DNA from: Negaprion brevirostris
Taxonomy: Eukaryota
Direction: 5' to 3'
DNA: 64,000 nucleotides
Assembly (NCBI GenBank): GCA_030324005.1
Contig: JARDVH010000150.1
Span: 15,144,057 to 15,208,056, forward strand
In this document: positions 56,310-59,300 of the stretch, piece after piece
Position numbering within the stretch: position 1 is the stretch's first letter
How the letters are laid out: each line of letters begins with the position of its first letter
Position numbers and translations under genes: made by a program
The notes under the pieces: model-generated
What the model was told of the DNA's origin: nothing
Database searches by the model: none
The model's input: only the letters and a program-made list of their open reading frames with translations

Positions 56310-59300
56310 CTGGAGGAGGAGAAGCAGGCACAAGGTAAAGAATTTGTAATACACTTTTAATTCAGCTTCTCCATATTCTATCAGATTGTGAAAATAGATC
56401 TGACTGGTACACTTTCCTTCTTTAACACCATTAATTTTTAAGTACAAACTGCATGAAGTGCTAGTACCGGTATGGGTCAAACTTAAGTATATTCAAAACA
56501 AGCAACTGGGAAGGCAGCGCAAGATTCCAATTTCAAATTGGGGATCCATTTGCCAGAATCTTGGATAACGATTTCATTCCAAGTATTTTTTTCTTGGGTT
56601 AAAAAGTAAAAAAAAGAGAAGGAAGGAGATACAAAAGAAAGGCTAGCAAATGAAGCACCCACCGCTTCATACAGAATGTCACTGAAAGATATTATGGCAA
56701 CGTCCAAAGCCAAGACAATTCCTTTTTGTTATAGTATGGTAATATGTAGACAGAAATTGAAATACTGAGAGAAATATCAAAATTAAAGTATCTCTCTCCA
56801 TGTTGCCCATTGGAAAAAAAAAATCAGAAAACAAATGCCCTTTGGAATGCATTAGGTATGCTTTATGCATAGATAATTTGGAGGTCCCAAAGCTCCTTCT
56901 AGGCACAAAAGGATATAGCTGCAGCACTATCAATGCCTAAAAAAAGAGTGTGCGACATGCATTACCAATTAGATAAATAGTTCACCGATAGGGCTGGTAG
57001 ACCCACTCAAAGCTCTGCGAACAAAACTCAGTAGCCAAAGCCCCAGGGAGCAAAATGCAGAAGAGGTTATTTCATGTCAATCACCTCCCTTGTCTTCCAT
57101 ATACTGCTGATTAAACAGTACAACAGGAGTTCAACCACCAGTACAGAAGTCATGGTCTCAAAAAAATAATGCACCATAAAATAGTTTAAATTTGTCATCA
57201 AGACAGGCAGAGTTCATTATAATTTCTTCAGTCCTAGAGGAGAGTTGGAAACGAAAATTTCATCTGAAGTTTATGCTGACTTGATATGCTTGGTTTGCAA
57301 ATGTGCAGAAAAATGACAATGAAACAATAATTGAGAGTAACCAGCATTTTTTCTACAAACAGGAGCGCTCCATTTATCCAGTTGTTAGAATTGAACTTAA
57401 TTGATCAGAGATAGAAAACAAATGATAAAGGAAAATTTGGATCTGTAAAATCCTGATTATCCAATCTTGATTTTAGATTTCTCATTTTAAAACGAAAGTA
57501 TGCTAAGTTAGCAATTACATAATTACAATCTTATGAAACACACAGTTGAAAACACTGAAAATTGAAGGTTTACAACTCACAGAATTCTATGAAACATCTG
57601 GTTCTATTAGTTTGTAAAATAAACTTTGTTAGAAAATTCTAAATTACAATATCAAAAAGTACAATTTAAAATAGCTTATCAGAATTCTCATCTTTGTTAT
57701 GCTTATATTTTCATCCAATTCATCGTAGCCTTTTAGAAGTGGTCTTTGCTCTTTCTCCTGACTTATAGTTCCAGTGCAGAGGAAAGGATATGTTCTTAAA
57801 AAAATTAGACGTGGAAGGGGAGGTTGAAACAAAGCCTTTCAGCCACCTGAATCACCAAGTGAAAAACTGACATGTGTGGCTGAAAAATTGACATTTGTGA
57901 TGGTTAAATTTGCAATGAGTAAAATATGCCCAACAGTGGCAACACAATTAATAAGTAATCTTATAGGTTTAACTCCTTCCAAAAATCCCACAGCCAAGCA
58001 CTCTTTGCTGATACATCATTTCAAAACTGAATCATAGCAACCTATACTACTCTTCATTTAAAGATTTACATTAAGTTTGCCAAATTTAAAAATAACTTCA
58101 TGTCAACGTATTATTGCACTTAAAACCCAACATTGCAAAAAAGGTGAAGAAACAAACAAGTCGGATATCCCATATATCCCAGGTGAGATTTTAAGAAAGC
58201 TTGAAGTTCATAAAACTGTATTTTTCACATTGAGAGTCAATACTAGTCTTTCAAGAGGTAGGAAATCTCTGTCATAATATAATGAAGTTCTTAGATTTTG
58301 TAAAAGAAAAATAACTTTTTAATATACAAGATTAAATGTGTAACCCACTGTTCTAAGCTGATGATTTTCAGTGTTAAATTGCAAATACACTGGAAGCTGA
58401 AGAGGTTTGTATATGTACTTACCATAACTATCATAGTCATCCCGATACGACCTTCCAACTGAACTATTATAGCCATAGCTGCTAGAATTTTGATTCCTAC
58501 AATTAAAAAGATGTATTTACCACAACGCAATACAAAAAAACATGCCAATATGCACGAATGCAATTATTTACCTATTATAGTAGTCGTTTCTGTAATTGCT
58601 TCGTCCACTTCTGTCACCATCTATTAGAAGATTGAGCAAGTTAGTCTTTTAAGTACGTACACTGAAGGGCATAGGTAGAAAAATTTAACATACAAGATGT
58701 GCCTTCTATATACAATGGAATATACGTAATATCAAATTTTCTTATAATTGCGAATGGAAGCAAATGTTAAGACCCAACATGCTGAATTCCGCTAAGCTCC
58801 CAGACATTCTGTGCAGCACCAACCTCAATACTGGCACCAAAATTATTCAACATTAGCAAAGCAGTATTGACATTTGTGGCTGAAAAATTGACATTTGCGA
58901 TGGTTAAATTTACAATGAGTAAAATATGCCCATCGGTGGCAACACAATTAATATAATCTTATAGAATTAACTCCTTACAAAAATCCCACAGCTAAACACT
59001 CCTTGCTCATACATCATTTCAAAACTGAATCACAGCAACATATGATTCCAGGCCCCTAGCTGCTACAAGGGCACTGAAATCACACAGGTCAGTTCAAATA
59101 AGACTGTTACCTAAAAACTCAACCAATTTATGTCAATTTTTCTACTGCATTCACCAGTCAGCAGGTTAATTTCCAACATTAATCACCTCTGTAAAATCCA
59201 CGGTTGCTTCTCCCACCACGAAATCCATAACCTCGCGATTGCCCACTTTGGTAATTCCGAGACCGTCCTCCAGAACCCTTTCCTGCTTGATCTACTCTAA

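Follow-up and report, generated by a model that had tools for sequence, protein, structure and literature searches.

A duplicated intronic element in a CIRBP-like gene of Negaprion brevirostris as a candidate atypical H/ACA guide RNA

Two introns of a CIRBP-like gene of Negaprion brevirostris were found to carry one copy each of an element of approximately 175 nt. We lean towards the reading that the copies represent an atypical intronic H/ACA guide RNA, duplicated in cis, which works like a member of this class without being canonical. In the window (the whole 64,000-nucleotide stretch that was analysed) copy A is located at 57868-58045 and copy B at 58868-59043, both on the minus strand. Over an alignment of 178 columns (E 3.5e-66) the copies are 91.0% identical; 162 columns match, 14 hold substitutions, and the remainder is a single 2-nt gap. 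Identity ends abruptly on either side, on the 3' side 7 nt beyond the ACA, and the flanks do not align, in agreement with an earlier sequence-only reading, which had described a duplicated element with unrelated flanks. The candidate RNA would occupy 58872-59043 in copy B, with its end predicted at ACA plus 3 nt, and 57872-58045 in copy A; the identity between the copies extends to 58868 and 57868, respectively.

The host is the second of two CIRBP-like genes that lie in tandem on the minus strand (39500-44300 and 55500-64340). We take it to be CIRBP, the name that the earlier reading had used; RRM motifs were seen in the translation. The region of exons 3-7 (56310-60108, minus strand) has exons at about 60004-60107, 59187-59319, 58571-58620 and 58423-58495, and a last exon from 56309. 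The joints 59319/60004, 58620/59187, 58495/58571 and 56309/58423 were present in 4/4 runs; the contigs derive from 4 of 22 public runs, which were taken as RNA by guess, and assembled contigs drop rare forms. Because of these joints, copy B could be placed in the intron 58621-59186 and copy A in the intron 56310-58422. The earlier assignment of the copies to two different introns, 4 and 6, was thus confirmed, these numbers presupposing that a single non-coding exon precedes the first coding one, which lies at about 64339, outside the window. Copy B is separated by 143 nt from the donor and by 251 nt from the acceptor of its 566-nt intron; copy A lies 377 nt after the donor of an intron of 2113 nt. 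Both copies are on the sense strand of the host, one per intron. No contig of the 4 runs covered intron 4, an absence that is uninformative as to a small RNA.

The exons and the start of the 3' UTR of the tandem genes are 63-78% alike, and their introns are unrelated except for repeats. The second gene is one codon short in exon 3 relative to the first. At the end of exon 6 of CIRBP copy 1 (41207-41209, minus strand) there is an in-frame TAA where the paralog has TAT; with it the protein stops at ...SYDS, six codons short, and the stop stands 4 nt ahead of the last exon junction. Either a change in the lineage or a fault in the assembly may be the cause. An 88-nt inverted repeat (92%; 60427-60511 and 62329-62416) is present in intron 2 of the second gene and adjoins short interspersed repeats.

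As the sequence-only reading had stated, the element is missing from CIRBP copy 1, both by sequence comparison and in a scan with a sequence-only model of the two copies; this model matched just copies A and B in the 114,000 bases scanned. No third copy was found when the 2.69-Gb genome was searched at the DNA level with copy B: 2/2 candidates were in this window, a count that is a floor because the search skips very common words. No target-site duplication or shared flanking duplication was visible at either copy. A transposable element was rejected, since there were two genome matches, no dispersed family and no flanking duplication; the many dispersed copies that the earlier reading had named as the mark of a transposon were not encountered. 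Rfam gave zero matches at gathering score across the whole window, and at E up to 10 nothing beyond noise.

The motifs named in that reading (AGATTA, GCC-ACA, TTGCT/AGCAA, GCTG/CAGC and AATTG/CAATT) were all found on the minus strand of both copies. The ACA box is at 58875-58877 in copy B and at 57875-57877 in copy A. Two overlapping H-box candidates near the middle of the element occupy 58954-58962 in copy B (ATAAGA 58957-58962, AGATTA 58954-58959), with their counterparts at 57959-57964 (ATAAGA) and 57956-57961 (AGATTA) in copy A. In the predicted fold of copy B these are mostly unpaired yet enclosed by GCTG/CAGC, and in that of copy A they are paired. The 5' hairpin H1 (TTGCT/AGCAA; 59003-59038 in copy B, 58005-58040 in copy A) is weak (z -0.35 and -0.49) and is not followed by an H box. 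The upper stem CGATGG/CCATCG with its apical hairpin spans 58898-58935 in copy B and the equivalent 57898-57935 in copy A. The C-G to T-A swap reported earlier for this stem is present, together with a T-T mismatch in copy A; in total the stem of copy A has one compensatory swap and two new mismatches. Beneath the pocket described below there is almost no local lower stem. The long-range pairing GCTG/CAGC (58989-58992 with 58879-58882 in copy B, 57991-57994 with 57879-57882 in copy A) could, in the modelled fold, be the sole substitute for it, and it encloses the H box.

The element was examined for the stable hairpin-hinge-hairpin-tail fold in which a lower stem adjoins each box, and this fold was not found. 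Folding of the whole element gave z +0.82 for copy B (161/200 shuffles at least as good) and z +1.84 for copy A (197/200), whereas the control, the genome's SNORA13, gave z -3.57 (0/200 as good). For the ACA hairpin alone z was -1.34 in copy B and +1.37 in copy A; the hairpin of SNORA13 reached -4.25. A consensus fold computed from both copies was rod-like and different from the H/ACA fold, and 0/50 of its pairs were compensatory. The earlier description of a "structured element" was therefore not upheld. The missing canonical fold is the main evidence against a snoRNA, and because of it the element was not filed as a canonical H/ACA member. Copy A looks like the more decayed of the two. Copy B alone is adjoined at its 5' end by a very stable hairpin (59040-59085, minus strand; z -4.90, 0/200 shuffles). 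The 5' arm of this hairpin is similar to the 5' sequence of the element, which makes alternative pairing possible.

A bipartite pocket 14-16 nt upstream of a box was detected on the ACA side and not on the H side, with a significance that is modest over multiple sites. Its 5' guide strand is at 58936-58947 in copy B and, identical in sequence, at 57936-57947 in copy A; the 3' guide strand GTCAA is at 58888-58892 and 57888-57892 (all minus strand) and starts 15 nt before the ACA in both copies. The letters preceding the ACA are like the SNORA13 guide, and this likeness was tested against the genome's canonical SNORA13, which is on the same contig about 10.7 Mb away (Rfam 63.2 bits). The 10-mer and 6-mer pocket words of SNORA13 occur 15 nt before the ACA in both copies. 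With a spacing of 20-60 nt the two words were found only in SNORA13 and the two copies in 536,520 bases scanned (both strands, overlapping loci counted in); 4/16 of their letters are not guide letters. The pocket-to-box distance in H/ACA RNAs is given as about 14 nt in a passage of PMC5778458.

In both copies the pocket, with TTGTGTT (58941-58947 in copy B) as 5' strand, pairs 7+5 with the genome's 18S site corresponding to human 18S-U1248, for which SNORA13 is named as guide in an excerpt of the PMC6984369 supplement. As a control, this 18S site came out on top (score 31) for the pocket of SNORA13 itself. The two base pairs that SNORA13 forms above its pocket are mismatches in the element, and this register fails a filter requiring an abutting upper stem. 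The 16-letter likeness to SNORA13 is the strongest part of the evidence for a guide function; as a whole this evidence, drawn from sequence comparison and post hoc, is suggestive.

Two further SNORA13-like sequences were noted. One is a second, degenerate SNORA13 copy (G000:C48706:599-733) with 46.5 bits, which is below the cut-off, and with changes in the pocket. The other is in the window at 6323-6395 (minus strand), where a pre-ACA sequence pairs 10+8 with the same 18S site and no stable fold was detected (z +0.89); this likeness is likely to be due to chance.

A second register, in which the 5' strand is displaced by 5 nt (GTTGCCAC, 58936-58943 in copy B, minus strand) and the 3' guide is unchanged, allows 8+4 pairing with the 28S U4373 site and carries a 5-nt bulge. 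Human 28S position 4373 is marked as pseudouridine in the human/Xenopus 28S alignment contained in the PMC6984369 supplement, and SNORA65 is given as its guide in parts of that supplement and of PMC2653536. The 28S site was the top site common to both copies once an abutting upper stem was required. When sequences were shuffled with the ACA fixed, 47/20000 reached the 18S score, 45/20000 the 28S score and 2/20000 both; among the other ACA sites on the minus strand of the window (n=1092), two reached the 18S score, one the 28S score and none both. The score is a simple contiguous-pair score made for this analysis, not that of snoGPS or RNAsnoop. Several of the 1581 uridines of the redundant target set scored as high, the 18S site ranking 4th in copy B and 5th in copy A, and two other sites tying with the 28S site in copy A. 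About 100 modified sites are known (108 positions in an excerpt of PMC10227372), and a per-site rate of 0.1-0.2% multiplied by this number means that roughly 10-20% of ACA sites match some known site. Chance alone thus yields pocket matches of this strength once some 100 sites are tested.

The only full 18S of the assembly in the target set is of a divergent type, and the 28S set is patchy, with part of the middle missing and the 3' part taken as the majority reading of 12/40 degraded genomic copies. The contig carrying a full, strongly divergent and GC-rich 18S (L009/L010, G000:C50:4915-17512) has a typical vertebrate-like 18S fragment beside it and also carries 5.8S and 28S pieces. A misjoin, a contaminant or a second type of rDNA could account for this arrangement.

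The lack of a fold signal, with the ACA hairpin of copy A even weaker than shuffles, would also be understandable if the copies had arisen by neutral local duplication of intron sequence, or were a decaying former snoRNA gene without present function, the boxes and targets being chance matches or relics; ANANNA and ACA are common in AT-rich DNA. In the one relative for which nearly all differences were listed, 2/178 element positions differed as against about 35/1935 elsewhere in intron 6, so that no constraint was detectable, a comparison of low power. Neutral duplication or decay does not readily account for the sharp ends, for a 3' end 7 nt after an ACA that is preceded by a rare pocket at the right distance, or for one copy per intron on the same strand with no visible target-site duplication. 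None of the 14 substitutions falls within guide strands or boxes, a point of little weight as only about 26/176 positions are concerned. We rate such an origin without present function as unlikely.

The 5' domain was scanned in the same way. The rRNA pieces scanned yielded no target for it that combined an upper stem with a marked site. An 8+8 match to 28S proved to be an artefact of a deletion in a degraded rRNA copy and disappeared with better copies, and the other high-scoring sites were discarded since they had no upper stem or the uridine was unmarked in the human/Xenopus 28S alignment. If ATAAGA is taken as the H box, 8+4 pairing of the 5' domain with U2 snRNA is possible around U17, at a distance of 14 nt. 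This pairing survives both differences between the copies in that guide, and 69/10000 shuffles reached its score there. The element could be some other stable intronic RNA, for instance an H/ACA-type RNA acting on U2 or an orphan long rod with paired 5' and 3' ends, a fold that tolerates the substitutions. Against this, 525/1500 shuffles reached the same score at some U2 uridine, no upper stem stands over the pocket, and U17 is not listed as modified: it is absent from the human U2 pseudouridines in a table passage of PMC7960923, and the PMC6984369 supplement, as excerpted, lists no U2-17 guide. The U2-U17 target was therefore rejected as support, and we regard another type of stable RNA as very unlikely.

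The sequence-only reading had proposed a snoRNA or scaRNA, and the two halves of this proposal fared differently. The SNORA13-matching pocket, the canonical distance to the ACA and the known pseudouridine sites speak for a snoRNA. H/ACA scaRNAs have a CAB box, with the consensus UGAG, in their apical loops. UGAG was present in copy B only, in a stem, and not in any loop shared by the copies; no match at a listed site was found in U1, U2, U5 and U6, the snRNAs covered by the scan. With these two negative results the scaRNA reading is not supported. Similarly, a box C/D RNA is not supported: the sense strand of both copies lacks CTGA, and the copies have in common no uninterrupted 10-nt stretch of Watson-Crick complementarity to the rRNA and snRNA pieces scanned.

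A role in splicing is a further rival reading. Both copies contain a 3'-splice-site-like run (58880-58908 in copy B, 57880-57908 in copy A, minus strand) with a branch-point-like TTTAAC (58903-58908 in copy B), a U-run and an AG (58880-58881 in copy B), and 12/13 letters around the AG of copy B are like the start of the true last exon. The element could thus act in cis, by offering a decoy or an alternative acceptor or by serving as a protein-binding block, and so tune intron retention or a poison exon in this cold-shock gene. Intron 6 was bridged by contigs of 3/4 runs, indicating either retention in some molecules or the presence of DNA, and in human CIRBP this intron is regulated by alternative acceptors and retention, according to a portion of bioRxiv 2023.01.18.524578. 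The weak fold would suit an unstructured element. In addition, an upstream segment of intron 4 at about 59115-59142 (minus strand) can pair 13+11 with 58885-58914, covering the splice-site-like run. However, this pairing was modest in intron 4 (42/2000 and 23/100 shuffles) and absent in intron 6 (267/2000 and 96/100 shuffles), and a helix with the upstream flank was therefore rejected as a feature common to both copies. No joint was detected at the AG of either element in 4/4 runs, the four ordinary joints being present in all of them (rare forms are lost in assembled contigs). Between the paralogs the true acceptor is conserved, and the sequence upstream of it is unlike the element. Moreover, a splicing element would leave 176 nt of identity and the SNORA13-like pocket unexplained, and we consider this role distinctly improbable.

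The atypical guide RNA that we favour would be a box H/ACA RNA of about 172 nt, encoded in introns and duplicated within its host gene. Intronic H/ACA RNAs are released by exonuclease trimming after splicing, which is halted by the H/ACA proteins. In the same manner, exonucleases would trim the spliced host introns until stopped by the H/ACA proteins bound to the boxes of the element. The ACA-side pocket would then hold the target uridine for dyskerin, leading to pseudouridylation of the 18S U1248-equivalent, which would precede the m1acp3 modification; 18S U1248 is the precursor of the m1acp3-pseudouridine in the decoding region. Alternatively, the same pocket would direct pseudouridylation of the 28S U4373-equivalent. 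If the element is a guide, pairing predictions give the 18S site somewhat less than an even chance of being its target and make the 28S site a possible but clearly less probable one; a different target or none would be rather unlikely, and both sites together less likely still. A role at the 18S site would be redundant with that of the canonical SNORA13 present in the genome. According to sections of PMC2653536, new vertebrate snoRNA paralogs arise predominantly by cis-duplication, from one intron of a host into its neighbours, and pockets switching target or configuration between lineages are documented in part of PMC6984369. Also in favour of this reading, contigs from three related organisms span copy A, and the two differences from this genome among the entries listed (40 of 140), at 57874 and 58004, both give copy B's letter.

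A more far-reaching possibility, to which we give very little credence, is a lineage-specific H/ACA RNA with a transplanted SNORA13 pocket and a loosened stem, which would use two registers (18S U1248 and 28S U4373) and whose supply would follow temperature. Supply, and possibly fold, would do so because the RNA is hosted twice in a cold-shock gene. If true, this would link cold to rRNA modification in an ectotherm.

At the level of titles and listings, no paper on snoRNAs hosted by CIRBP or cold-inducible RNA-binding protein was found, nor any description of such hosting in the literature on shark snoRNAs. The terms CIRBP and RBM3 were absent from the main texts of PMC13736004 and PMC2653536 and from the supplements of PMC6984369 and PMC11880993; this search covered chicken, Xenopus, zebrafish and 2026 snoRNA-evolution texts or supplements, and a term search of PMC5733568 was empty. 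If the element is a guide RNA, it would be an uncatalogued snoRNA in a new host gene. It would also be a clear instance of the transfer of a guide pocket to another scaffold, and would give an essential 18S site a second guide. This would be a modest gain in a well-known class, notable only if a two-register pocket or coupling to temperature were shown.

Among known systems, SNORA13/ACA13 (RF00396) is like the element in having the same 10-mer plus 6-mer pocket and the same predicted 18S site, at a similar distance from the box (14 nt versus 15 nt). In SNORA13, however, the pocket is in the H-side (5') hairpin, whereas in the element it is in the ACA-side domain. SNORA13 is 136 nt long; the element is about 172 nt long, has weak stems and a different host, and scores nothing against the RF00396 model at E up to 10. 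SNORA65/U65 (RF00302; yeast snR34) is the guide for 28S U4373 and U4427. The alternative register of the element pairs 8+4 at the U4373-equivalent, where the chicken U65 pocket pairs 7+3; for this site U65, which is located in RPL12, employs its 5' hairpin, as described in passages of PMC2653536, whereas the element uses its ACA side. No RF00302 match to the element was obtained at E up to 10, and the U4427 site was not among the top sites for either box. A search of the genome for the SNORA65 family gave 0/44 scored candidates, with no control matching either. RPL12 exons 2-3 were located in the genome; its later exons were not found in the 70 kb examined, in which Rfam gave no match.

The usual vertebrate H/ACA RNAs measure 125-140 nt, whereas the element is longer, has an extra 5' hairpin and does not exceed shuffles in its fold signal. 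Greater lengths do occur in the class (SNORA81, 178 nt; SCARNA16, 178-187 nt), and the element matches neither model. It is alike to the intron-encoded vertebrate H/ACA snoRNAs that arose by cis-duplication in having one copy per intron on the sense strand, candidate H and ACA boxes, and a conserved core between unrelated flanks.
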